Shown here: positions 1 to 13,596 of the stretch, piece after piece | How the letters are laid out: the number at the start of each line of letters is the position of its first letter | Numbering within the stretch: the first letter of the stretch is position 1 | The notes under the pieces: generated by a model | The model's input: the letters and a program-made list of their open reading frames with translations, nothing else | Database searches by the model: none | What the model was told of the DNA's origin: nothing | Program-made: the position numbers and the translations under genes | NCBI GenBank assembly: GCA_001563915.1 | Contig: LKMP01000011.1 | Location: forward strand, 1-30,682 | Length of the DNA stretch: 30,682 nt | Origin: Nanohaloarchaea archaeon B1-Br10_U2g21 | Lineage (GTDB): Archaea > Nanohalarchaeota > Nanosalinia > Nanosalinales > Nanosalinaceae | Direction: 5' to 3'

Positions 1-3000
1 GTTTTAGGCCCTAACCCTGATAGTGACACTGCAGGAGGAAGCACTTGCGGGGATGGTTATGAGGACTCTGATTATGAGAGGGGCGATCCAGATGGTCAAG
101 AAAGCGAGGGCTCTACGTCAGGATATACTACAGAGTGCAGACCTGATTTTGGAAGAATATGGGAAAAATATGATCTCGAAGATCCTATGGATAATGATTG
201 TGATAACGATGATGCATCATGCGAGGGTGATGCTGAGGTGAGCTGTGAATCTGGAAGTACAGGAGGCAGCGATAGCAGTTGTTACAGTGATGATTGTGGT
301 ACTGAAACCAGTGCAGATTGTGACTTGGATGAGGATAATAGTGGTCATGAAGGTAATGAAGAGTTTAGAGCATCAGGAGATCTTATTGAGGTTAGAGAGT
401 GTACTAATGATGGATCATGTAGTCAGAGTAATGAAGAAAACTGTATAGATTATGACGGCGATAGCTGTACATCTAGTAATGCTGGAGGATCCTGGGATGA
501 TTGTCATATTGAGGATCCTGAGGAAGGATGTATTGGATCTTGTACTGCAAGTAATAGCGACCCATGTAGTGCTGATACTTGGGAAGGAGAAGGAGAAGAA
601 AGGTCTTGGAATAGCTGGTCAGAAGAACATGATTGTACGGATCGTAGCACTGTTGATGGTGGTACTTCAAGTCCAGATGATTACGAAAATAGTCAAGCTG
701 CTACATATACAAGATTTACTGCGCATCAAGATGCAAGTTGGGGAGGAGATGGCAAAGTATGGTGTGGGTATGACCATACTACGACTATTAATGCTGATGG
801 GCCGTGGGGATTAGGTAACGGATTTGTCGTAATCTATGAAGATGAGATAGTTGCAACTGAAAACCCTGCAGGAGACGATGAAGTAGGCCAGCATGTATAC
901 GTAGATGAGAGCAACGCAGACTATGATTTCACTGACAAAATTGATACAGACTGCGATGGAAGTAGAACTTGTATAAAATATGCTAACTTTTACACTGAAT
1001 CAAGTGGATGGACGGCTAGTAATAATCCTTCTGAATCAGAAGTAAGGTCTGCTGTGGATGTCGATGTAACGAGAGCTTATACTCCTGATGAGTCATATTC
1101 AGTGTGTAAAAATGTGAACAGAATTAATGAAGAAAACGGGAATGGAGACACTCTGCTTGACTGTGACTATATGAGTGGCGAAATATCTTTTGACAATATT
1201 TCTCCTCTGCCTGAGGCTTGTGGGGACGAAGAAGATGAGCAGTTAATGCTAATGGAAGGGCCTCAAGTTGACCAAGGGTCTGTAGAAGAACACCTATTCC
1301 ATGAGCAGAAATGTGTGTCTTGGGGTGATGATGAAGTAGACCGTTTTGATAGAGAATTAGATGAAAATGCATGTGTTAATAAGGGAGAAGCTTTTGCTGA
1401 GGGAACAGTAGCTAACGTGGCTTTCCCAGATGGACTAGTAGATAGTGAACCAGAACATTACAATGAATATGAAGAAGGAGGCGACAGTCCCGACTGGCAA
1501 GTCTGTCTTAACATTGCTGATTCTCCTTATGCAGACGCTGAAGAGGTTACTGATAAACCTTACAATCATCGTTATAATGACTGGGATGAGGAATCCTTTG
1601 GAGGACAGTGGTACGATCTTGATGATTCTAGAGTCAACGACTACTTGACACAAGGAAATCATGATATTACTTTAACTTCTGAGCAAAGAGCAGATACTCC
1701 TAGCGATGAAGAAATCCATCATATCGATTATTATTATGGAGAACATCCAAATCCTAGTGATTCTACATATAATCCTGAAGGAGAGAACGAAGGAACTGCT
1801 CTTTTAGCAGACTGTGGGCCTCTAATTGAAGGGTGTGGTGATGATGGTTCAAGTACAAGCGGAGGAGTTAACGCAGATGAGGGCACGTTCTTTACGTTCT
1901 TTGAGGAGAGTGCTGTAGATCCTGATTACCATCCTCAGGGAGAAACGGAGGAATTTTGGTATCCTACAGAGTCATCTATTGAACCTGTTTTTAATCCTCC
2001 TGGAATGATGAATTTAATTAAAAGCCATCAGGATACGGATAACAGTCGTTATCCAGGACAGTTAAGTCCTGGGCATTATGAATATGATAACTGGAACCGT
2101 GAATGGTATGAAGATACACAGATAGATGAAGAAAGTGCAGTACAGTTTGCGTACACAAGAGATACTACTTGGGTAGTTGACTCAACAGGCACTCCATACC
2201 CAGCATGGGGTGTGGAAGATACAGGTTATGAGTCTGATGATATGGGACAGGATGATAACATCCAAGAAAACGAGGAAGGATTCTCAGCAGGAATTCATTA
2301 TAACTTAGATTATACGGGAAGTATAAGAGAACAGCCTTCTGACGACACTGTTAATAAACCGGATAGAGCTATGGCGAACTCGCTAGCTGTAGTCTCAGCA
2401 GTAGAAATGACGGATGATGAAGGAAACATGATTAATGAAGGGGAAGCATTTTGGATAGATCCTGATGATTTAAGGTATCACGCAGACGAAGGCGTTATAG
2501 CCGGAATTGAGCCTGAAACAGATGACTGGCAAAGATTAGTACAATACGAAATCGATCTTACAGGTCCGGATTCAGGCCTTGGATGGGATTGGTCTTATGA
2601 TGAATATTATGATGAAGATAGAGATCCAGAGATAAATCCTGAAGTAATAGAAACAGATGATGACTATGGTTCTGACATAGTTTATACTGATATTTACTGG
2701 GAGGAAGATGACGGAGATTTAGCAGATGGACTTGAACCTCCTATGTGTGGAGATGACAGATGGGAGTATCTTCTAGAAGAAAAAGGAGAATCTGCTAATC
2801 CTGATAAATATTCTGGTCGTTATGCCTGTGCTACAGATCAAAGTTTGTGTGTATCCTATGAAGGAGATGATGACCAGGTACTATATGAGCAAGGAGATTA
2901 CCTCAATACTAATGGACCGGGAGAAGACGAAGGACGTTTAAAACAAGATGAAGAGGCCTGTGCTCAAAGACCAGAAGATGATGTTGCTATGTGGTGGGAT

Positions 3001-4020
3001 CAAGATTATGGTCAAATAGATACAGATGAGAGCAGTAATTTGTGCCGTGAAAACAGTTTATTTGGAAGTCAAGGTAAGAGGTGGATTAACTATGACTATA
3101 TTAATGAGTATCCTTTCGCGGTTAACGAAGGTATTGATGATTCATGGAATGCTAGACTTAACCAAATGAGTCATGACTATTTAATTTCTGATCCTGAGGG
3201 TGAAGAATGGATTGATGACTATGAAAATGGAGTAGGCCCATTAGAACAAGATTATACTCCTGTTCCTACCGGGACCGAAGATGAAAGAGTGGCCGATCCA
3301 TCTCACGGAGAATACGGGTTCTGTGCGGGTGACGATGCTTCAGAGTACCTGATTAGACAAGAATCTCAGACAAGATTTTTAGACACAAAAGATGAAGTAA
3401 AAGGAGTGGCTTTAAGCCCAGACAGCTGTGTATTAGAAAATGACTATGAAGATTATGAATTTGGGCTTGAAGGATCAAATGACGACGACCGAAGAATTTA
3501 CCAAGAAGGAGACACCGTTGATTTCGAAAGCGGAGGCACTGAAAGAGAAATAGGATGTTTTGAAGGACAATGGTGGGATGACTGGCCAGTACAGTTCCTA
3601 GAAGATAATTCTGAAGTCGGATTGTCCGATACAGATATCACCACGTTTAGAGTAATCAATCCTCAGGACAGTGAAAGAACTTTTGACTTAACTCTAACAA
3701 CTGGCGATGAAGATTTAGAAAGAATGGTGAGCTTTTCAGACTCCGGATCAGATGAAATGAGCGTAACAGTTCCAGCCAGAAGCTCTAACACCTACGATGT
3801 AGAAATCAGAGGCCTAGACCTTATAGATAATGAAGAACTACAATTAAGAGCAGAATCAAGTAGAGGAGACCTTGACGGAACAGATACAATTGATATCTCA
3901 GTTGTCGAAGGATATGTATCAGAAACAGAAGGAGAAATAAGAGATGTATCCGGCCTAACTTTCATGCACTTAGCACTAATATTCTTATTAGGACTTGTCT
4001 ACTTCATCTATAGAGAATAA
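1..4020 (+). CDS. Very large acidic, Cys-rich cell-surface protein with C-terminal membrane anchor (5'-truncated by window)
   Basis: The frame is open from base 1 (VLGPNPDSDTAGGSTCGDG...) into the 187..4020 ORF, so the true start lies upstream. D/E/C/W/Y-rich, with DNDCD and DTDCDG motifs and CGDD-x2-EY-like repeats. Ends in a beta-rich domain and VSGL-TFMHLALIFLLGLVYFIY-RE (TM helix plus charged tail). Confidence 0.85.
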   Translation, partial: VLGPNPDSDTAGGSTCGDGYEDSDYERGDPDGQESEGSTSGYTTECRPDFGRIWEKYDLEDPMDNDCDNDDASCEGDAEVSCESGSTGGSDSSCYSDDCGTETSADCDLDEDNSGHEGNEEFRASGDLIEVRECTNDGSCSQSNEENCIDYDGDSCTSSNAGGSWDDCHIEDPEEGCIGSCTASNSDPCSADTWEGEGEERSWNSWSEEHDCTDRSTVDGGTSSPDDYENSQAATYTRFTAHQDASWGGDGKVWCGYDHTTTINADGPWGLGNGFVVIYEDEIVATENPAGDDEVGQHVYVDESNADYDFTDKIDTDCDGSRTCIKYANFYTESSGWTASNNPSESEVRSAVDVDVTRAYTPDESYSVCKNVNRINEENGNGDTLLDCDYMSGEISFDNISPLPEACGDEEDEQLMLMEGPQVDQGSVEEHLFHEQKCVSWGDDEVDRFDRELDENACVNKGEAFAEGTVANVAFPDGLVDSEPEHYNEYEEGGDSPDWQVCLNIADSPYADAEEVTDKPYNHRYNDWDEESFGGQWYDLDDSRVNDYLTQGNHDITLTSEQRADTPSDEEIHHIDYYYGEHPNPSDSTYNPEGENEGTALLADCGPLIEGCGDDGSSTSGGVNADEGTFFTFFEESAVDPDYHPQGETEEFWYPTESSIEPVFNPPGMMNLIKSHQDTDNSRYPGQLSPGHYEYDNWNREWYEDTQIDEESAVQFAYTRDTTWVVDSTGTPYPAWGVEDTGYESDDMGQDDNIQENEEGFSAGIHYNLDYTGSIREQPSDDTVNKPDRAMANSLAVVSAVEMTDDEGNMINEGEAFWIDPDDLRYHADEGVIAGIEPETDDWQRLVQYEIDLTGPDSGLGWDWSYDEYYDEDRDPEINPEVIETDDDYGSDIVYTDIYWEEDDGDLADGLEPPMCGDDRWEYLLEEKGESANPDKYSGRYACATDQSLCVSYEGDDDQVLYEQGDYLNTNGPGEDEGRLKQDEEACAQRPEDDVAMWWDQDYGQIDTDESSNLCRENSLFGSQGKRWINYDYINEYPFAVNEGIDDSWNARLNQMSHDYLISDPEGEEWIDDYENGVGPLEQDYTPVPTGTEDERVADPSHGEYGFCAGDDASEYLIRQESQTRFLDTKDEVKGVALSPDSCVLENDYEDYEFGLEGSNDDDRRIYQEGDTVDFESGGTEREIGCFEGQWWDDWPVQFLEDNSEVGLSDTDITTFRVINPQDSERTFDLTLTTGDEDLERMVSFSDSGSDEMSVTVPARSSNTYDVEIRGLDLIDNEELQLRAESSRGDLDGTDTIDISVVEGYVSETEGEIRDVSGLTFMHLALIFLLGLVYFIYRE

Positions 4021-4208: not shown

Positions 4209-5708
4209 ATGGGACAGGAGCTAGGTATAACTGTTAGCAAACAAAAAAATCCATCTGAATGGTATACACAAGTAGTACAGAAAGCGGATTTAGCAGACTA
4301 TGCGCCAGTTAAAGGCTGCATGGTTATCAAGCCATACGGAATGCAGATCTGGAACTCAATAAAACAAGAATTTAATGAAAAAATTACTGCTACAGGTGCT
4401 GAAAACGCTTACTTCCCATTATTTATCCCTGAAAGTTATCTAGAAAAAGAAGAAGATATAGTAGAAGGATTTGACCCAGAAGTAGCATGGGTCACTCATG
4501 GAGGAGAAGAAGAACTAGATGAAAAACTTGCAGTAAGACCTACTTCAGAATCAATAATTGCCCCATTCATGTCTAAGTGGATTCGATCACACCGCGATCT
4601 GCCTCTAAGACTAAATCAGTGGGCAAACGTAGTTAGGTGGGAGGCCACAGATACTAGACCATTCCTCAGGACCCGCGAATTTTTATGGCAAGAAGGTCAC
4701 ACAGCCCATAAAACAGAAGAAAATGCAGATGAAGAAACATTACTAAGACTTGAGCAGTATAGGGAAGTAATTGAAGATCATTTAGCAATACCTTCAGTAC
4801 GAGGTTACAAACCTGAACACGATAAGTTTCCCGGAGCAAAATACACTACAACTATTGAGACACTAATGCCTGATGGAAAAAGCATTCAATCTGGCACCTC
4901 TCATCAGCTAGGTCAACACTTTGCTGAAGCATTTGACATAACTTTTGAGGATGAACATTCTGAGCAAAGCACTTGCTGGACAACATCTTGGGGACTGTCC
5001 ACTAGAACTGTCGGCGCATTGATAATGGCTCATGGAGATGATAATGGGTTAAAGCTACCTCCAAATGTCGCACCTATACAAGTTGTGGTAGTGCCGATTT
5101 ACCAAGATGAAAACAAGGAAGAAGTACTCGACTATTCAGAGAAACTTGCTGAACAAATTAAAAGAGCTAAAGGCTGTGGATGCAAATCAAATATCAGAGT
5201 AGAGATTGATGATAGAGATCACCGGAGTCCTGGATACAAGTTTAATGAATGGGAGCTGAAAGGCGTACCTCTCAGAATAGAAGTAGGGCCTAATGAAGTA
5301 GAAGATGATGCTGTTACAACAGTTAGAAGAGATAACGGTGATAAAGAACTAGGAATAGACCGGAAAAAATTCTTGAGAAGTGTAGATGATCTTCTAGATG
5401 AGATACAAAATTCAATGTATGAAGAACTTGAAGAGTATCTTGAAGAAAACATTCGTGAAGCCTCATCAAAAGAAGAAGTTCTCGGCACAATTGGGAAGAG
5501 CCGTGGATATGTCAAGACGAGATGGTGTGGAAAAGAAGAGTGTGAAAACGAGATTAAGGATCAAGTTGCAGCAGAAATAGTCGTACTGCCTTTCCATGAA
5601 GACAGTAAGCCTGAAACTATTCAATCCTCTGAAGAAGAAATAGGAGGCGACTGCGCTATCTGCAGCAAAAAAGCTAAGAGATGGGCTTATTTCGCAAAAA
5701 ATTATTGA
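4209..5708 (+). CDS. proS: Proline--tRNA ligase, archaeal/eukaryotic type
   Basis: Class II motifs (YFPLFIP, RPTSE, RWE..TRPFLRTREFLWQEGHT, SWGLSTR), anticodon-binding domain (KGVPLRIEVG), C-terminal Cys4 Zn domain ending FAKNY. No INS editing domain. Confidence 0.97.
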   Translation: MGQELGITVSKQKNPSEWYTQVVQKADLADYAPVKGCMVIKPYGMQIWNSIKQEFNEKITATGAENAYFPLFIPESYLEKEEDIVEGFDPEVAWVTHGGEEELDEKLAVRPTSESIIAPFMSKWIRSHRDLPLRLNQWANVVRWEATDTRPFLRTREFLWQEGHTAHKTEENADEETLLRLEQYREVIEDHLAIPSVRGYKPEHDKFPGAKYTTTIETLMPDGKSIQSGTSHQLGQHFAEAFDITFEDEHSEQSTCWTTSWGLSTRTVGALIMAHGDDNGLKLPPNVAPIQVVVVPIYQDENKEEVLDYSEKLAEQIKRAKGCGCKSNIRVEIDDRDHRSPGYKFNEWELKGVPLRIEVGPNEVEDDAVTTVRRDNGDKELGIDRKKFLRSVDDLLDEIQNSMYEELEEYLEENIREASSKEEVLGTIGKSRGYVKTRWCGKEECENEIKDQVAAEIVVLPFHEDSKPETIQSSEEEIGGDCAICSKKAKRWAYFAKNY

Positions 5709-6347: not shown

Positions 6348-6986
6348 ATGTCAGATAAAGAAGAAAAATCAGTCGGACAGTTCAAAACTGGAACAACAAC
6401 GGTAGGCCTCACAACAGAAGAGGGAGTGGTATTGGCCGCAGACAGAAGAGCTTCCATGGGAAGACTCACAGCTTCAAAATATGCTAAGAAAATTTACAAA
6501 TTAGATGATAATCTAGGCCTGACAATTGCAGGAAGTGTTGGCGACGCACAGAAAATCGTCCGAATTATGAGAGCTCAGCTAAAACTTCATAGACTTGAAA
6601 CCAAAGAACTAAGCGTCAAAGGAGCAGGCACATTACTATCAAATATTCTGCACAGTAACAAAATGATGCCGTTTATGAACCAGTTTGTTCTAGGAGGAGT
6701 AGACGAAAATGGAGGCGTACTGTATGATCTTGATCCTGCTGGAGGCTTAATGGCTCATGAATACTTTACAGCTACAGGTTCAGGTAGTCAAATGGCATAC
6801 GGAGTTCTTGAAGACAAATACGAAGAAGATATGGATCACGAGGAAGGAGTCCAACTTGCAAAGAGTGCTGTAAAGTCCGCGATGGAGCGAGATACTGCTT
6901 CAGGTAATGGTATAATGGTTGCAGAAATCACTGAGAACGGTTTCGAGGTGCTGGAGCAGTCAGAGCTCAAGCAAGTCGTTGAATAA
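6348..6986 (+). CDS. psmB: Proteasome subunit beta
   Basis: Short propeptide then KTG/TTTVG catalytic Thr; LAADRRAS, GSVGDAQ, ATGSGS and RDTASG motifs. Confidence 0.96.
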   Translation: MSDKEEKSVGQFKTGTTTVGLTTEEGVVLAADRRASMGRLTASKYAKKIYKLDDNLGLTIAGSVGDAQKIVRIMRAQLKLHRLETKELSVKGAGTLLSNILHSNKMMPFMNQFVLGGVDENGGVLYDLDPAGGLMAHEYFTATGSGSQMAYGVLEDKYEEDMDHEEGVQLAKSAVKSAMERDTASGNGIMVAEITENGFEVLEQSELKQVVE

Positions 6987-7011
6987 ATCAATATTAAACA
7001 GGTTTTCATTT

Positions 7012-10000
7012 ATGGAAGAACTTAAAGACATTAAAGCAGAGTTACCTAGAAATGCAAATGTATCTGAGATAAGGTACGAAGCATCAGACATAGTACTCTA
7101 TACAGACAGTGAAGAATTCTTTTTAGACAACAGAGATACAGTAAAAAAACTGGTTTCTAAACTTAAGAAAAGAGTAGAAGTAAGACCTACGTCTAAACTA
7201 TTCAGAGATCCTGAAAACGCAAAAAAGAAAATAAAAGAAGTAGTATCAGGAGAAGCTGGTCTTGAGGATACTATTTTTCAGCCAAGCCTTGGAAAAGTAA
7301 TAATTAGGGCTGAAAGACCTGGAAAAGTAATAGGAAATAAAGGAGAAGGATTAAGAGAGATTAGAAAAGAAACTCTTTGGGCTCCACAAGTAGAACGAGT
7401 ACCGGCAATTAACTCTAAAATTGTGGATAAAGCCCGAGAACTCACAGTAGAAGATCCTGAATTCAGAAAAAAGTTCTTGCATGAAGTAGGAGAAAAAATC
7501 AGACTCGATAAATCCGTAGGCGACGAATGGATTAGAGTATCATCTTTAGGAGGCTTCAGACAAGTAGGAAGAAGCTGCGTACTAGTCCAGACAGAAGAAT
7601 CCAACGTATTACTAGATGCAGGTATCGATCCTAGCGCAGAGCCGGGAACAGCTCAGAACTATCCCTACCTTAATGCGCCTGAACTCGACCTTAGAAATCT
7701 AGATGCAGTAGTGCTTTCACATGCACACATGGACCACTGTCTAACTCCAGATACTCCTGTAACCATGGCTAACGGCGAAAGAAAGCCAATCACAGAAGTA
7801 GAGAAAGGTGACGACTTGAAAGCCTTAAATTGGGAGACTGGAGAACTAGAAAAAGGAACTTGTACAGGCACTAAAGAAGTAAAAGACGACAGATACTTGG
7901 AAATCAAGACACCTTTCAATAGCATTAATGCCTCAGGAGACCACAAATTCTTTGGGGTCAAAAATTTAGAGGTTAAAGAAATTGAAGCAAGCAATCTAGA
8001 AACTGGAGATATGATTCCAAGGAAGTCAGTACATAGAGGATCAAAACTTGTTACACTAGATAAACCTGATTACAGAGAAAGAATTGAAGTACCAGAAACA
8101 GCTAAAACAGAGCTTAGAAATACAAGAAATAAGTTAGGCATAACTCAAAAAGAGGTATCTGAGCAACTTGGAAAAGGAGTCAACTTTGTATCAGACCTAG
8201 AAAACAAATACGATTCAATATATCTTGAAAATCTCAAATCAATGCTTGAGCTCTATAAAATAGATTTCAAAGAGTTCCTAGAAAATCACGATATTGAAAC
8301 AGTTTCCTATCCTGACGAACTTGATAGAGAGATTGCCCAGCTAGTAGGCTATTTCTACGGCGATGGGCACAAGACAGGTAACAGGTTAAGGTTCACCGAT
8401 AAAAATAAGGGTTGTCTTCAGAACTACAACGAGCTCGTATACTCAATTTTTAATTACAGAGGAAATATCAGAAAACATCCTGACAGAACTAAAAACGCGT
8501 ACTCACTGGAAATCAACAATGTTGGAATTGTAAGGTTCTTGGAACAAAACTTTGAAGGGCTATACGAAAATGGAATAGACTCAACTCTACCCAACAAGAT
8601 ACGACTGGGAGACCATGAAGTTGCTCAAGGATTTATCAAAGGCCTTTTCGATGCAGAAGGAGATGTGAACAACCAGATTAGGATAGCTCAATCAAATCCT
8701 GATGCCCGAAAACAAATACAGAACCTTCTTTCTTCTATAAACATTAAGGCCTCGAATTCGGATTCAAATATCAGGCTGTCAGTATCTTCTGGAAAGTCTA
8801 TCCGGAGATTTATTGAAGAAGTAGGTTCTGATCACCCTATTAAATCTGAAAGACTAAATGAGCTTCATCCAAACTTATCAAATGACTCTGAAGAGATAAT
8901 TCCTGTTACTTCAGAGGATTTGCATAGAGTTCTGGAAGATGCAGGTATGATCGGAAGAGTAAATGGAAGTCCTAGCTACAAAGAACTAGATAGTTGTCTA
9001 GTCGACTGGTACAGGAGAAATCCAGATAGTCATGCTACAAAGAAAACGGTTGAAACGCTTATAGACACTCTGAAACAGAGAATATCAGACATCGAGGCAT
9101 TGGGGATAGAGAACATTTCAGAAGCAAGAAAAGGAATGTCTTTAACTCGAGAAATAGTAGCAAAATCAACTGATAGTACAGTCAGCCAAATACAGCTTAT
9201 AGAGGATAGAGGACAACAAACCGATTACGTAGTTGAACTTGAATCCTATATCAAAGAAAAGCTAGAACAGGCAATAGTGAAAACCCGAGAAAATATTGAG
9301 AAACTTGAAAACCTGTTAAAACTAAATCTAGACTGGCAAAAGATAACAAGTATAGAAGAAAAGGAAAATGAGTATGGATACTTAGTAGACATCAGAGTAG
9401 ACCCACAACACAACTTCATAGCCAATGACCAAGTAGTACACAACTGTGGAATGATCCCTTATCTATACAAGATGGGTTACGATGGTCCGCTGTACTGTAC
9501 AAAGCCGACAAGAGATATCATGATTATGATGACTTTGGACTACATAGGTCTTGCACACAGTGAGAATAACAAGGCGCCATATGACTCTTCTGCTATCAAG
9601 AAAGCAGTGAAAAGAACTATTACGCCTGACTACGGCGAAGTAACGGATATTACTCCCGATATGCGCTTAACTCTGAAAAATTCAGGACACATAATCGGTA
9701 GCGCATTAACACACTTACACATAGGAGAAGGCCTCCACAATATTCTCTATACAGGGGACTATAATTATGACTCAACGGAGATGTTGAGACCTGCAGACAC
9801 AAATTTCCAGCGTGTCGAGACGATGATTACTGAGGCAACTTATGGAGGACGGGATGATAAGCAGAGTCCGCGCGAGGAATCTGATAAGAAGTTCCTGTCT
9901 AAAATGAAGCAGACTTTAAACAAAGGAGGGAAAGTGATCGTCCCTGTTTTCGCAGTAGGACGTTCACAGGAAGTTTTAGGTCTTTTATCGGACGAAATGG

Positions 10001-10593
10001 ATAGAAAATACTTTGACTATCCTGTGTATATTGATGGAATGATTAACGACGTCAATGCTCTTCACACAGCTTATCCTGAGTTCTTATCTGAAAAAGTTCA
10101 GGATAAAGTCCATAAAGAAAATTCCCCCTTCCTCAAAGAAAACATTAAGGCAATCGGAAGCCACAAAGAGAGACAAGAAGTATATGATTCAGGTCCATGT
10201 ATCATCTTGACAACTTCTGGAATGATTACTGGAGGACCAATTATGTCTTACCTCAAGGAAGAGGCCTCTAATCCCGATAATTCATTGATTTTTGTTGGTT
10301 ATCAGGCTGAAGGAACTCTAGGTAGAAAAATACAGAGCGGTAAAAGTCCTGTTAAGGTTAACGGAGAAAAAATAGATATCAATATGGATGTTTCCACAGT
10401 TTCAGGTTTTTCTGCTCACAGTGATAGGCAACAAATTATAAACTACTGTAAAAATCTAAGATCCACGCCTAATAGAGTATTGACAAATCACGGTGAGAAA
10501 AAGAAATGTTTCTCTCTAGCATCAACCTTGCACAAAATCTTGAGGATCGACACTTCCGCTCCTCAAAATCTTGAAGCCAACAGGCTTAACTAA
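7012..10593 (+). CDS. fttA: Beta-CASP ribonuclease aCPSF1 / transcription termination factor FttA, intein-containing (about 624 aa after splicing)
   Basis: N-terminal KH domains (PGKVIGNKG), LGGFRQVGRS, HAHMDH, GHIIGS, YTGD, PVFAVGRSQE, GYQAEGTLG, FSAHSD and NHGE. Start set at ATG 7012 (MEELK). Sits in its known position after psmB. Confidence 0.95.
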   Translation: MEELKDIKAELPRNANVSEIRYEASDIVLYTDSEEFFLDNRDTVKKLVSKLKKRVEVRPTSKLFRDPENAKKKIKEVVSGEAGLEDTIFQPSLGKVIIRAERPGKVIGNKGEGLREIRKETLWAPQVERVPAINSKIVDKARELTVEDPEFRKKFLHEVGEKIRLDKSVGDEWIRVSSLGGFRQVGRSCVLVQTEESNVLLDAGIDPSAEPGTAQNYPYLNAPELDLRNLDAVVLSHAHMDHCLTPDTPVTMANGERKPITEVEKGDDLKALNWETGELEKGTCTGTKEVKDDRYLEIKTPFNSINASGDHKFFGVKNLEVKEIEASNLETGDMIPRKSVHRGSKLVTLDKPDYRERIEVPETAKTELRNTRNKLGITQKEVSEQLGKGVNFVSDLENKYDSIYLENLKSMLELYKIDFKEFLENHDIETVSYPDELDREIAQLVGYFYGDGHKTGNRLRFTDKNKGCLQNYNELVYSIFNYRGNIRKHPDRTKNAYSLEINNVGIVRFLEQNFEGLYENGIDSTLPNKIRLGDHEVAQGFIKGLFDAEGDVNNQIRIAQSNPDARKQIQNLLSSINIKASNSDSNIRLSVSSGKSIRRFIEEVGSDHPIKSERLNELHPNLSNDSEEIIPVTSEDLHRVLEDAGMIGRVNGSPSYKELDSCLVDWYRRNPDSHATKKTVETLIDTLKQRISDIEALGIENISEARKGMSLTREIVAKSTDSTVSQIQLIEDRGQQTDYVVELESYIKEKLEQAIVKTRENIEKLENLLKLNLDWQKITSIEEKENEYGYLVDIRVDPQHNFIANDQVVHNCGMIPYLYKMGYDGPLYCTKPTRDIMIMMTLDYIGLAHSENNKAPYDSSAIKKAVKRTITPDYGEVTDITPDMRLTLKNSGHIIGSALTHLHIGEGLHNILYTGDYNYDSTEMLRPADTNFQRVETMITEATYGGRDDKQSPREESDKKFLSKMKQTLNKGGKVIVPVFAVGRSQEVLGLLSDEMDRKYFDYPVYIDGMINDVNALHTAYPEFLSEKVQDKVHKENSPFLKENIKAIGSHKERQEVYDSGPCIILTTSGMITGGPIMSYLKEEASNPDNSLIFVGYQAEGTLGRKIQSGKSPVKVNGEKIDINMDVSTVSGFSAHSDRQQIINYCKNLRSTPNRVLTNHGEKKKCFSLASTLHKILRIDTSAPQNLEANRLN
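7738..9444 (+). mobile_element. Intein (569 aa) with LAGLIDADG homing endonuclease and two XRE-like HTH domains
   Basis: N-junction HAHMDH|CLTPDT; block B SGDH; LAGLIDADG motifs LVGYFYGDG (about 8341) and FIKGLFDAEG (about 8632); block F/G VDIRV..HNFIANDQVVHN|C. Removal restores HAHMDH-CGMIPYL. Confidence 0.95.
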
Positions 10594-10626: not shown

Positions 10627-12006
10627 ATGACAGACATAAAAATAGGTCTTGAAACACACGTACAACTCAATACAAACTCAAAACTGTTCTGCAGCTGTAG
10701 GAATGAGCAAAATGTAGAACCTAATACAAATGTCTGTCCAATATGTCTAGGCCATCCTGGCTCAAAACCAAGAGCAAACAAAGAAGTAATAAATCAGGCT
10801 TTCAAAGTCTGTAAAGCTCTGGAGCTAGACTTTAATGAAGAGTCTGTATTTGCACGTAAAACTTACTTTTATCCTGACATGTCGAAAAATTATCAGGTAA
10901 CTCAGTATGATAGACCCGTCGCACAGAATGGACGGTTTGAAGTTAAAATTAAAGACAAGAAAAAAGAGATAGGTATAAAGAGACTTCATATTGAGGAAGA
11001 TCCTGCACGACTTGTTCATGAAGAAAACTACTCAAAGGTAGATTACAACAGAGCCGGTACACCCTTACTTGAAATAGTCACCGACCCCGACTTAAAGTCA
11101 TCTGAGGAGGCCCGGACATATCTACAGCAGCTTGCTCACGTACTTGAATACTTGAAGGTCTACAGCCCTGTATCTGACTATTCAATTAAGAGTGATGCCA
11201 ACATTTCAATTAACGGCGGAGAAAGAGTAGAAATTAAAAACATTACAGGAACATCCGCAATAGAAAAAGCATTGAACTATGAACTCTCTCGACAAAAACA
11301 ACTAACAAAAAGAAACAAAGAGGTAAAACAACACACTCGCAGATACAATCCAGATATGGGTTCTACTATAAAAATGAGAGAAAAAGAAACAGAAGAAGAT
11401 TATGGATACATAGTTGACCCTGACCTTACAACCCAGAAAAGTAAAGATGTTTCTAACGTAGAAATACCTGAGCTGCCTCGAGAAAAGTATCGCAGATTCA
11501 AAAAAGACTATGAAATAAAAGATAAAATAGCCGAATCCCTTGTTTCTGACCCTGGACTAGCAAAAGCATACGAAAAACTAGCTCAAAAACATGATACACA
11601 TATAGCCGCAACTTTACTAACCGGAGACCTAAAGAAAGTCTTGAACTATAATGATGTGGCATATAGTGAGGCCAAACTCGAGATAGACTGGCTATCGCAT
11701 CTTCTAGAATTAATTGAAGAAAATCGTATTAGTGACAGAAACGCCGAAAAAGCACTACGCGAAATAGTAGAAAATCCAAGGCCTATCAAAGAGATTATAG
11801 AAGAACTAGGACTAGAGAAATCTAGCGATGACAAAGTAGCCCAAGCAGTAAACAAAGTGATTAAAAACGAGGAAGAGGCCGTGAAAGACTATACTTCAGG
11901 AGATGAAGGAGCAATCAATTATTTAGTAGGCCAAGTAATGCAAGTCACACAGGGAGGAGCAGATCCTAAAAAGACTCGAGAGCTTTTACTGGAAGAACTG
12001 GAATGA
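10627..12006 (+). CDS. gatB: Asp-tRNA(Asn)/Glu-tRNA(Gln) amidotransferase subunit B
   Basis: IGLETHVQL, KLFCSC..CPICLGHPG, RKTYFYPD..KNYQ, RLHIEED, DYNRAGTPLLEIVT, VEIKN, and C-terminal YqeY tail GQVM..T.G.ADP. Confidence 0.95.
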   Translation: MTDIKIGLETHVQLNTNSKLFCSCRNEQNVEPNTNVCPICLGHPGSKPRANKEVINQAFKVCKALELDFNEESVFARKTYFYPDMSKNYQVTQYDRPVAQNGRFEVKIKDKKKEIGIKRLHIEEDPARLVHEENYSKVDYNRAGTPLLEIVTDPDLKSSEEARTYLQQLAHVLEYLKVYSPVSDYSIKSDANISINGGERVEIKNITGTSAIEKALNYELSRQKQLTKRNKEVKQHTRRYNPDMGSTIKMREKETEEDYGYIVDPDLTTQKSKDVSNVEIPELPREKYRRFKKDYEIKDKIAESLVSDPGLAKAYEKLAQKHDTHIAATLLTGDLKKVLNYNDVAYSEAKLEIDWLSHLLELIEENRISDRNAEKALREIVENPRPIKEIIEELGLEKSSDDKVAQAVNKVIKNEEEAVKDYTSGDEGAINYLVGQVMQVTQGGADPKKTRELLLEELE

Positions 12007-12917
12007 AGGCGCACAAATTTTTAACAGAGAACGATATAGAATTTGAACTAGTTGAACAAGAAAACCCTACAAAAGACTGTGATGCTGCTGCTAGAGAAAG
12101 AGGAGTTGAAACTCATCAAATTGTTAAAAGTCTTATTATAGAGCGGCATTGTGAAAAAGGCGACAAAAAAAATACAGAGCTCCTTCATGTGCTGTTACCA
12201 GGAGACAGAACAATTTCTGAGAAAAAATTTGGCGAACATCACTTGGTAAATCCTGAAAGATCAGAAAAACTAACAGGTTTCAAATCAGGCACAGTACACC
12301 CTTTTTCAACAGATATTAAACATGTACTAGACTTCAGAGTACTCAAAAATGATAAAGTATCATTTACAGTAGGAGAGCAGCTTAAGGGAGTAATAATAAC
12401 TACTGCTAATTTTAGAAAAGCACTACAAAAATCAGATTTTGAGTACGAAGTCAAAGATGTAGCTCTTTCAGATAAAAGGGATATTGAATTACTAACAGCT
12501 AGAGATCTTCCTGAGGATAAAGCACAGTTTATCACTGAACATGGATTCACTCACCTATATCTCCAACTCAACTACAAAAATGATATGATAGTCAAAGCTT
12601 TAGAAGAAGCAAAGCGCTATCAATTAAGGCCTAGTAAGTCAATTTTAGAAAATATTTTAGAAATATCTAATACTCTAACTCAAGTGCAAAAAATCACAGC
12701 TTATTATGCTAAAAATGGAGAATTACCTCAGGAACAAGATGAGTTTGAAGTACATCAAGTTGTTGAGGATGTGTTCTCAGAATTTCCTAGTGCCAGAAAA
12801 GACCTTGAAAATGGTAAAGGCTCAGTTGAAAATTTTGTAATAGGCAAGGTTATGGAGAAAACTCGCGGAGAAGCTAAACCTGAAAAAGTTAGGGAGATTC
12901 TTCAATATGAGTATTAA
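12003..12917 (+). CDS. YbaK/INS-superfamily aminoacyl-tRNA deacylase fused to a GatB-like helical and YqeY domain
   Basis: The first ~150 aa show YbaK features (QIVKSL conserved Lys, LLPGD, TGFKSGTVHPF GxxxP loop). The 53 aa at 12744-12902 align ungapped with the tail of the adjacent GatB (20/53 identical by hand). ATGA overlap with gatB. Confidence 0.85.
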   Translation: MKAHKFLTENDIEFELVEQENPTKDCDAAARERGVETHQIVKSLIIERHCEKGDKKNTELLHVLLPGDRTISEKKFGEHHLVNPERSEKLTGFKSGTVHPFSTDIKHVLDFRVLKNDKVSFTVGEQLKGVIITTANFRKALQKSDFEYEVKDVALSDKRDIELLTARDLPEDKAQFITEHGFTHLYLQLNYKNDMIVKALEEAKRYQLRPSKSILENILEISNTLTQVQKITAYYAKNGELPQEQDEFEVHQVVEDVFSEFPSARKDLENGKGSVENFVIGKVMEKTRGEAKPEKVREILQYEY

Positions 12918-13596
12918 GAAAAAAATAGACGAAAAAGTAGAATCTTTGAAAGGGCAGGAAGACGTGAGAGCTGTAGCTATAGTAGGGAGCTATGCTCGTG
13001 AGCCTAAGATGAATCATAATGATATTGACATATATGTTATCGTGAAGGGCGGATGGCGTAAAAGAGAGACGTTTCAGGAAAATGGAGTCGTATGGGAAGT
13101 TTTCTATAATTCTATTGATTGGATTAAGACCTATTTTGAAGAAGATCGTAATTGGTATACCTACCACTGGTTAAGTAACGCTGATGTGCGTCATGATCCG
13201 GAAAACCTTTTCGAAGAACTAGAGGATCTAGCTGAGGAATGGAAAGAAAATCAGTTTAAAGTAGATAAAGAGCGACTACTATACAGCATATGGGATATTC
13301 AACAAGACTTAGATTCCTCTGACGTGGGTCAAAAAAGATTTATGATGCATAAAGCCTTCAACAGACTACTAGATAAACACTATCTCCTGAAAGAAGAACC
13401 ATTAGTTAAAGATAATTACAAGCTGAAACGAATGAAAGATTTTGATGGCTATATGTATAAACTATCTCAGGAATTCCTGATGGAGAGTTCAACAATGAAA
13501 AAAGAACAAAAACTCAATAAAATCATAGAACACGTCACAAAAAATATTGGTGTTCCTAAACCTGAGTGGAAAACTAAGAAAGAATTTCTAAACTAG
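12907..13596 (+). CDS. Pol-beta-superfamily nucleotidyltransferase with C-terminal helical domain
   Basis: hhGSYAR..NDIDIYV signature and a third acidic residue in WEVFY. Overlaps the upstream gene by 11 nt. Confidence 0.8.
   Translation: MSIKKKIDEKVESLKGQEDVRAVAIVGSYAREPKMNHNDIDIYVIVKGGWRKRETFQENGVVWEVFYNSIDWIKTYFEEDRNWYTYHWLSNADVRHDPENLFEELEDLAEEWKENQFKVDKERLLYSIWDIQQDLDSSDVGQKRFMMHKAFNRLLDKHYLLKEEPLVKDNYKLKRMKDFDGYMYKLSQEFLMESSTMKKEQKLNKIIEHVTKNIGVPKPEWKTKKEFLN

Follow-up and report, generated by a model that had tools for sequence, protein, structure and literature searches.

Organisms without asparaginyl- or glutaminyl-tRNA synthetase (AsnRS, GlnRS) make Asp-tRNAAsn or Glu-tRNAGln on purpose, and these intermediates corrupt proteins if they are bound by the ribosome. 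Their rejection by the elongation factor is one accepted safeguard. Channelling within the transamidosome is another (PMC2811023). Whether the indirect route may also possess a proofreading enzyme of its own is the question raised by a gene on a contig of a small salt-lake archaeon, Nanohaloarchaea archaeon B1-Br10_U2g21 (LKMP01000011.1, assembly GCA_001563915.1), the whole 30,682 nucleotides of which were analysed and are referred to as the window. The gene (12003-12917, plus strand) starts with ATG and encodes a 304-residue protein, in which a YbaK-type deacylase domain is joined to a GatB-type tail. From the DNA letters alone, it had been proposed to specify a tRNA-targeted editor (referred to as the original prediction). 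Our own reading is a tentative one, to which we give a nearly even chance: the fusion protein may be a trans-editing deacylase, linked to the amidotransferase pathway and steered by its GatB-type tail to what we infer to be its substrate tRNA, tRNAAsn.

Domain architecture of the fusion protein

The fusion gene lies immediately behind gatB (10627-12006, plus strand), which encodes 459 residues comprising the GatB_N cradle domain and the GatB_Yqey helical and tail region (316 and 119 bits in Pfam) and which reaches 533 bits against the NCBIfam equivalog NF004012 (cut-off 338). As originally described, the ATG of the fusion gene sits within the TGA stop codon of gatB, so that the two genes overlap in the tetranucleotide ATGA (12003-12006). 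Two Pfam families match the encoded protein: tRNA_edit (PF04073) on residues 21-139 (profile positions 2-122 of 123; E 5.4e-13, 49.5 bits, cut-off 25.5) and GatB_Yqey (PF02637) on residues 233-301 (profile positions 77-145 of 148; E 6.4e-13, 49.3 bits, cut-off 27). Both halves of the proposed architecture, an N-terminal YbaK/INS domain and a C-terminus of GatB_Yqey type, are borne out by these scores. The protein remains far from the existing equivalogs, with 35.1 bits against YbaK_EbsC (TIGR00011, Cys-tRNAPro deacylase; cut-off 153.25) and, through the tail region only, 42.7 and 46.1 bits against the GatB models TIGR00133 and NF004012 (cut-offs 314.8 and 338). Pfam found no GatB_N in it, and the stand-alone YqeY family (PF09424) was absent among its Pfam matches at E up to 1.

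The relationship of the C-terminal half to GatB is supported at several levels. The 20 identities in 53 ungapped positions that had been noted between 12744-12902 and 11830-11988 of the neighbouring gatB were recovered exactly; in 30 shuffles of the fusion sequence the best 53-residue segment reached 11-14 identities, and none reached 20. BLASTP aligned the two proteins with 18 identities in 48 positions (E 2e-6). Comparison by hhalign of a profile of 35 fusion homologues with one of 14 Nanohaloarchaeal GatBs gave 99.2% and E 3.2e-19, placing fusion columns 127-305 on GatB columns 269-473, and residues ~160-304 of the fusion protein on the neighbouring GatB over the full extent of its helical and tail domains (283-459). 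The same alignment pairs RDLPEDKAQFITEHGF at the start of the C-terminal half with YEIKDKIAESLVSDPGL of GatB, reproducing the weaker of the resemblances in the original prediction. Furthermore, P0129, a more distant homologue, covers the 148-position Pfam GatB_Yqey model from 2 to 148, positions 156-297 of the fusion-family profile match residues 455-615 of GatE (2d6f_C), and the YqeY-like tail matches residues 404-472 of Staphylococcus aureus GatB in a profile search (E 9.4e-12). The C-terminal half is therefore assigned by homology to the entire helical and YqeY-like tail region of GatB, with a shorter helical part, and amounts to more than a terminal motif.

Accordingly, three segments can be laid out on the plus strand: the N-terminal YbaK/ProX-fold domain (residues 1-156, 12003-12470), placed by Pfam, structure alignment and Foldseek; the helical part of the tail, a shorter homologue of the GatB helical domain (residues ~157-243, 12471-12731), placed by hhalign and the GatE and P0129 matches; and the YqeY-like tail domain (residues 244-304, 12732-12914) with the motif NF(L/V)IGQVM..T.G.A, placed by Pfam and the S. 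aureus GatB match. A prediction of a complex from the GatB and fusion alignments returned a score of 0.00, which speaks neither for nor against an association.

Predicted fold and conserved residues

An AlphaFold2 model of the fusion protein, built from the 35-sequence alignment, has a mean predicted local distance difference test score of 93.6 and a predicted template modelling score of 0.77. Its residues 1-155 superimpose on APE2540 (1wdv) with Z 17.4 and a root mean square deviation of 2.1 Å over 143 residues, and the modelled N-terminal domain also resembles Haemophilus influenzae YbaK (1dbu; Z 15.8, Foldseek E 4.3e-10) and Caulobacter crescentus ProXp-ala (5vxb; Z 14.8). For the tail, residues 244-304 of the model match YqeY C-terminal domains at Z 5.5-6.1 (8xje, Z 6.1), a low value for a helical bundle, and Foldseek retrieved S. 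aureus GatB at E 7.5e-4. Taken alone, the structural scores of so small a helical tail are weak, and the tail assignment is carried by the sequence profiles.

Conservation was read from the 35 aligned homologues, which extend down to 40% identity. In all 35, Lys42 (QIVKSL; codon 12126-12128), the segment PGDR (66-69) and the segment GTVHP (96-100, 12288-12302) are invariant, as are D110, R112, S120, T122 and G124. By the literature on the family, Lys42 is the catalytic lysine: its counterpart in plant ProXp-ala is K46, and the roles of the lysine and of the GXXXP loop are described for the family (PMC9425024). The persistence of Lys42, PGDR and GTVHP over this range argues for a working active site. 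The conserved lysine of the original prediction is thus confirmed, while its "unusual" GTVHP loop needs qualification: the GXXXP loop is a feature of the whole editing-domain family, and it is the histidine at the fourth place that marks the fusion clade, GxVHP being found in 30 of the 30 fusion-clade rows listed and GSVHP in one single-domain YbaK outside it.

Within the tail, G271, S274, N277, G281 and G289 are invariant in the same 35 homologues, and M284 and A291 are conserved in at least 90%. In S. aureus GatB, a hydrophobic pocket for the D-loop of the tRNA has been described in the tail, formed by V449, M452, G457, A459 and P461 (Nakamura et al., PMC2811023). Read from the alignment, the fusion motif IGQVM..T.GKA corresponds to these pocket residues, with variation at the proline position.

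Origin of the tail

Phylogenetic comparison of the tails with those of GatB and GatE, which had been suggested as a check, places the fusion tails inside an archaeal GatB clade (98/97), apart from bacterial GatB and from GatE. The tails of Nanohaloarchaeal GatBs form a 100/99 clade of their own that excludes the fusion tails, by which a recent tandem copy of the 3' end of the neighbouring gatB is ruled out. Because the fusion tails branch outside this Nanohaloarchaeal clade, the tail is, as judged from the tree, either old or acquired from another archaeon. Its archaeal GatB type, as opposed to that of GatE, favours tRNAAsn over tRNAGln as the recognized tRNA.

A second tree, of the YbaK domains, has all tail-bearing fusions on one side of a 100/98 split; its single-domain rows are those nearest to the query and hence a biased sample. 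YbaK domains embedded in GatB proteins of other archaea form a separate 100/95 clade among the single-domain YbaKs. These latter proteins, of which 24 were collected (P0134, P0140, P0224 and P0244-P0264; 22 clusters from a targeted search, plus P0140 and P0224), are 609-709 residues long and carry tRNA_edit, GatB_N and GatB_Yqey together. In 18 of them, the YbaK domain interrupts the cradle at its zinc-loop region, between the segments GLExH...KLFCxC and CxxCxGxPG, and in the other six it is placed ahead of the entire GatB. The built-in domain keeps the lysine (QIAKAL) and has the loop GLVPP. Their sources call these proteins simply GatB and give the lineage only as "archaeon"; a close archaeal GatB that has no insert is encoded in an archaeal metagenome-assembled genome (L049:4001-5407). 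Since the built-in clade is split from the fusion clade, YbaK and GatB parts were joined at least twice.

Distribution and linkage to gatB

A word-indexed protein search yielded 144 proteins at E <= 0.001. Among the matches listed (120 of the 144), all are 295-306 residues long and contain both Pfam domains, and where the sources give a name, it is only "YbaK/EbsC family protein" of Nanohaloarchaea, Nanosalina or Nanohalobium. An exhaustive search of 1.84 billion representatives gave 104 matches at E <= 0.001, nine of them at E <= 1e-30. Some distant members of the GxVHP clade (P0139, representing a 44-member cluster, P0135, P0133, P0152, P0183 and P0144) are considerably extended at the N-terminus and differ in composition from the archaeal members; P0139 shows a weak GatB_Yqey match (29.8 bits), and for P0144 two relatives were matched. 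These extended members may be eukaryotic; no plant matches were found in the searches with P0139 and P0144.

Seventy genomes of the phylum, all of one class and one order, were surveyed with two different queries. A full-length fusion gene is present in 33 of them, and in 17 of the 28 of high quality. By family, it occurs in 29 of 49 genomes of f1 besides the genome of the window, in three of ten of f4 and in none of the ten of f2, f3 and f5 combined. All but one of the 33 copies are free of internal stops, the remaining one (G050) showing one in-frame TGA with the second query; in a 34th genome (G041), a tail fragment alone was found, at a contig start. Recurrence in so many genomes answers the concern, voiced with the original prediction, that the fusion might be an assembly chimera. 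An artefact of whatever kind, be it chimeric assembly, a wrongly called frame or gene decay, has in our view a negligible probability, given at least 120 clusters of 295-306 residues with both Pfam domains, the full-length copies in 33 genomes with 32 lacking internal stops, the strong conservation of the motifs and the confident fold prediction.

The expected synteny with gatB was likewise found: 30 of the 33 copies have gatB directly upstream, in the same orientation. Twenty copies abut or overlap gatB, ten follow after a gap of 337-478 nucleotides, two are at contig ends and one (G005) lies elsewhere. The gap contains a small and variable open reading frame (ORF) (L014, L018, L025, L027, L029, L030, L031, L035, L038 and G061), which encodes a cupin in several cases (Pfam Cupin_2, L030:1176-1469) and appears Nudix-like, by eye only, in L018 and L038. 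In family f4 (L043, L044), the four-nucleotide overlap of gatB and fusion gene is kept as GTGA, with different genes downstream. All five genomes without the fusion gene that were examined keep the neighbourhood; in four, gatB runs directly into the nucleotidyltransferase gene that otherwise follows the fusion gene, and in the fifth (G046) an unrelated ORF of 155 residues lies between the two, in which no YbaK or GatB signal was detected when it was searched as a possible fusion remnant. Because fusion-less genomes retain the same neighbourhood, the fusion gene shows a clean presence/absence pattern at one site.

Translation pathway of the host genome

In the genome of the window (816 kb, 92% complete), the class IIb synthetases are LysRS and AspRS only, and the AspRS matches the non-discriminating equivalog with 561 bits (cut-off 353). 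An archaeal GluRS is the sole Glu/Gln synthetase detected; AsnRS and GlnRS were not found in this 92% complete genome. It carries gatC-gatA, gatB, and gatD next to gatE. This is the arrangement classical for archaea, with the formation of Asn-tRNAAsn relying on the non-discriminating AspRS (ND-AspRS) and GatCAB, and it agrees with the indirect-pathway setting that had been proposed. A second, ordinary YbaK of 177 residues with the loop GGVSP is also encoded, and the fusion protein is therefore an extra editor and not the only one of the genome.

Across the 70 genomes, GatB scores above cut-off in 56 and AsnRS in five. None of the five genomes with AsnRS has the fusion gene, and four of them show no GatB; the genomes being kin, this exclusion serves as a consistency check and not as a statistical test. 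The D-arms of the host's own tRNAAsn (G1-C72, G73, with intron) and tRNAGln (A1-U72) are unlike those of tRNAAsp and tRNAGlu, which does not single out any one tRNA as the ligand of the fusion protein. The sole tRNA-Asn(GTT) detected lies at a contig end (C19:2-92, minus strand), has an 18-nucleotide intron and was retrieved with the intron option of ARAGORN. The C-terminal region of the host's own GatE (contig C16, L011:1465-3309) gave no GatB_Yqey match when the whole genome was scanned with Pfam at E <= 0.001; in relatives, the GatE tail can be aligned to the GatB model.

Comparison with known systems

Several known systems share parts of this design. With the YbaK/ProX/ProXp trans-editing deacylases (INS superfamily, PF04073), the fusion protein has in common the fold, the conserved lysine, the GXXXP loop and a free-standing existence, and like them it presumably acts in trans; unlike them, it adds a 148-residue GatB-type tail, belongs to its own GxVHP clade (100/98) and is coupled to gatB rather than to proS. 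To the GatB of GatCAB it is homologous throughout its C-terminal half, groups with archaeal GatB tails and keeps the residues of the D-loop pocket, whereas it has no cradle (kinase/amidotransferase) domain, a shorter helical part and a degenerate Lys-rich motif. Among the archaeal GatBs with a built-in YbaK, a YbaK-type domain with lysine and GXXXP loop is similarly joined to GatB parts, but there the entire GatB is kept, and the YbaK domain (GLVPP) is of the other clade.

Precedents for the tail come from two further enzymes. In the GlnRS of Deinococcus radiodurans, a C-terminal YqeY/GatB-like domain is needed for productive binding of tRNAGln (PMC1865053). The same module is thus placed in cis on a tRNA enzyme, and the fusion profile matches it (2hz7_A 795-849, E 5.4e-7); the partner there is a synthetase, not a deacylase, and the organism is a bacterium. 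Plant ProXp-ala is a YbaK-family editor of ~308 residues whose appended helical C-terminal domain of 143 residues raises tRNA affinity, its deletion reducing deacylation of Ala-tRNAPro 14-fold through a tRNA-binding defect; in contrast to the tail described here, that domain is reported by its authors to lack homology to any translation factor (PMC9425024). The GatB-type tail is shared by GatB, GatE and D. radiodurans GlnRS (PMC1865053, PMC2811023). Together with the N-terminal domain of eukaryotic GlnRS, these are the other settings in which the module was seen, and all are enzymes of Gln- or Asn-tRNA, with the free-standing YqeY proteins as the exception.

Candidate function and alternatives

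A mechanism that would reconcile these features is the following. The YbaK/ProX-fold domain would hydrolyse the ester bond of an aminoacyl-tRNA, and the tail would grip the elbow of the tRNA, around the D-loop and the variable loop, in the manner of GatB. Binding by the tail would thereby select the tRNA and bring its charged CCA terminus into the pocket of the YbaK domain. The client would probably be tRNAAsn, given the archaeal GatB type of the tail, the coupling of the gene to gatB and the formation of Asn-tRNAAsn only through ND-AspRS and GatCAB; the likeliest task would be the removal of Asp-tRNAAsn, or of other wrongly charged tRNAAsn, escaping the amidotransferase. Such a preference would be in line with that of archaeal GatCAB for Asp-tRNAAsn (PMC2811023). 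The interpretation offered with the original prediction is thereby upheld in part: architecture, tail homology, gatB coupling, pathway setting and conservation are supported, while deacylation, tRNA binding and substrate keep their conditional form. Further support, beyond what the original prediction could draw on, comes from the YbaK domain of another clade that other archaea have joined to a complete GatB.

Several observations weigh against a tRNAAsn-directed editor. An enzyme deacylating Asp-tRNAAsn would draw on the obligatory substrate of GatCAB and so compete with it. The gene is dispensable, since it is missing from 37 of the 70 genomes, including three single-contig genomes that are 95-99% complete and keep GatB. 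Much of the adjacency to gatB may be inherited synteny among kin that are not independent, because in family f1 nearly the whole neighbourhood is conserved, in the order gatB, fusion gene, nucleotidyltransferase gene, small ORF, PAN ATPase gene. A Lys-rich KXGKXK motif has been described for GatB tails (PMC2811023); in the fusion tails it is degenerate, the family consensus being xxGKDS and the sequence in this protein ENGKGS, and the host's own GatB likewise lacks it (TSGDEG; SGDEGA). The whole-GatB proteins, having a YbaK of another clade, do not bear directly on the substrate of the Nanohaloarchaeal fusion. Finally, the nearest solved relatives of the N-terminal domain are ProX and YbaK proteins linked to ProRS editing, and 6.3 kb upstream of the fusion gene there is a gene for ProRS.

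The last point leads to the main alternative, in which the protein is a ProRS-linked or general trans-editor, acting for example on Ala- or Cys-tRNAPro or on Ser/Thr-mischarged tRNAs. The tail would then provide generic tRNA affinity, perhaps offsetting weak electrostatics in a high-salt cytoplasm, and the position behind gatB would be a relic of tail acquisition. The relatives concerned are APE2540, Thermus thermophilus ProX, YbaK and ProXp-ala; the ProRS of the window (4209-5708, plus strand) is of archaeal type (tRNA-synt_2b, HGTP_anticodon, ProRS-C_1; TIGR00408, 572 bits) and has no tRNA_edit domain of its own in Pfam, and plant ProXp-ala, with its C-terminal domain, provides a precedent for the attachment of a tRNA-binding domain to an enzyme of this family (PMC9425024). 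We nevertheless regard this alternative as rather unlikely: a canonical YbaK of a single domain is already encoded in the genome, the tail comprises the full module of archaeal GatB type with conserved D-loop-pocket residues, the four-nucleotide overlap with gatB is found in two families with different downstream genes, and YbaK was fused to a whole GatB independently elsewhere.

An accessory role without hydrolysis seems improbable. The pocket would hold the aminoacyl end and the tail the elbow of Asp- or Asn-tRNAAsn, and the protein would sequester or protect the tRNA or pass it between ND-AspRS, GatCAB and EF1A. Matched synthesis with GatB, as suggested by the start-stop overlap, would suit such a role, as would the whole-GatB fusions, which place a YbaK domain physically on the enzyme. 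However, the catalytic lysine of the family and the GXXXP loop are invariant, as for an active hydrolase, and we know of no YbaK-family member that acts without hydrolysis.

Other genes in the window

Directly downstream, and overlapping the end of the fusion gene by 11 nucleotides, lies a gene for a Pol-beta-type nucleotidyltransferase of 229 residues (12907-13596, plus strand), which scores just below the Pfam cut-offs (Polbeta 26.5 bits, cut-off 26.9; NTP_transf_2 19.7 bits, cut-off 21). gatB, the fusion gene and this gene are packed like an operon, and the nucleotidyltransferase gene is the conserved downstream neighbour of the fusion gene in relatives. At its place in the relatives (L013-L042, L129-L133), either the full-length gene or only the C-terminal ~90 residues are found.

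Two other genes upstream are recorded as side observations. Positions 6919-10593 encode an FttA/aCPSF1-type beta-CASP RNase (KH_TffA, Lactamase_B, Beta-Casp, RMMBL) that is split by an intein of ~560 residues (Intein_splicing on residues 281-842, with LAGLIDADG_3 and HTH_3), inserted directly after the metal motif HAHMDH. Positions 187-4020 contain an ORF of 1277 residues that matches no Pfam family at E <= 0.001.

Implications for the indirect pathway

No description of the combination of YbaK and GatB tail, nor of an Asp-tRNAAsn deacylase, was found in the literature searched (subscription journals and supplements lay outside its scope), in agreement with the statement in the original prediction that no account of the architecture was known. 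The domain pair as such is already visible in precomputed annotations; should the substrate assignment hold, the finding would rise to a new principle, namely that the indirect pathway is proofread.

It is possible, if rather doubtful at present, that the indirect route to Asn-tRNAAsn, and perhaps that to Gln-tRNAGln, has its own proofreading enzyme, and that the archaeal amidotransferase gained a YbaK-type deacylase on at least two occasions: in Nanohaloarchaea as a separate protein that copies the tail of GatB, and elsewhere as a domain built into the GatB cradle. If true, a deacylase bearing the tRNA-recognition module of GatB, or a YbaK domain within GatB, would be the first dedicated editor of the indirect pathway and would add a third safeguard to rejection by the elongation factor and channelling in the transamidosome. 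The built-in form would then be an "editing amidotransferase", analogous to the editing synthetases, and the editing logic of synthetases would extend to amidotransferases. Even if the protein serves ProRS or edits more generally, it would represent a natural re-targeting of an editing domain by a swapped-in tRNA-binding module and would inform on how trans-editors choose their tRNAs.

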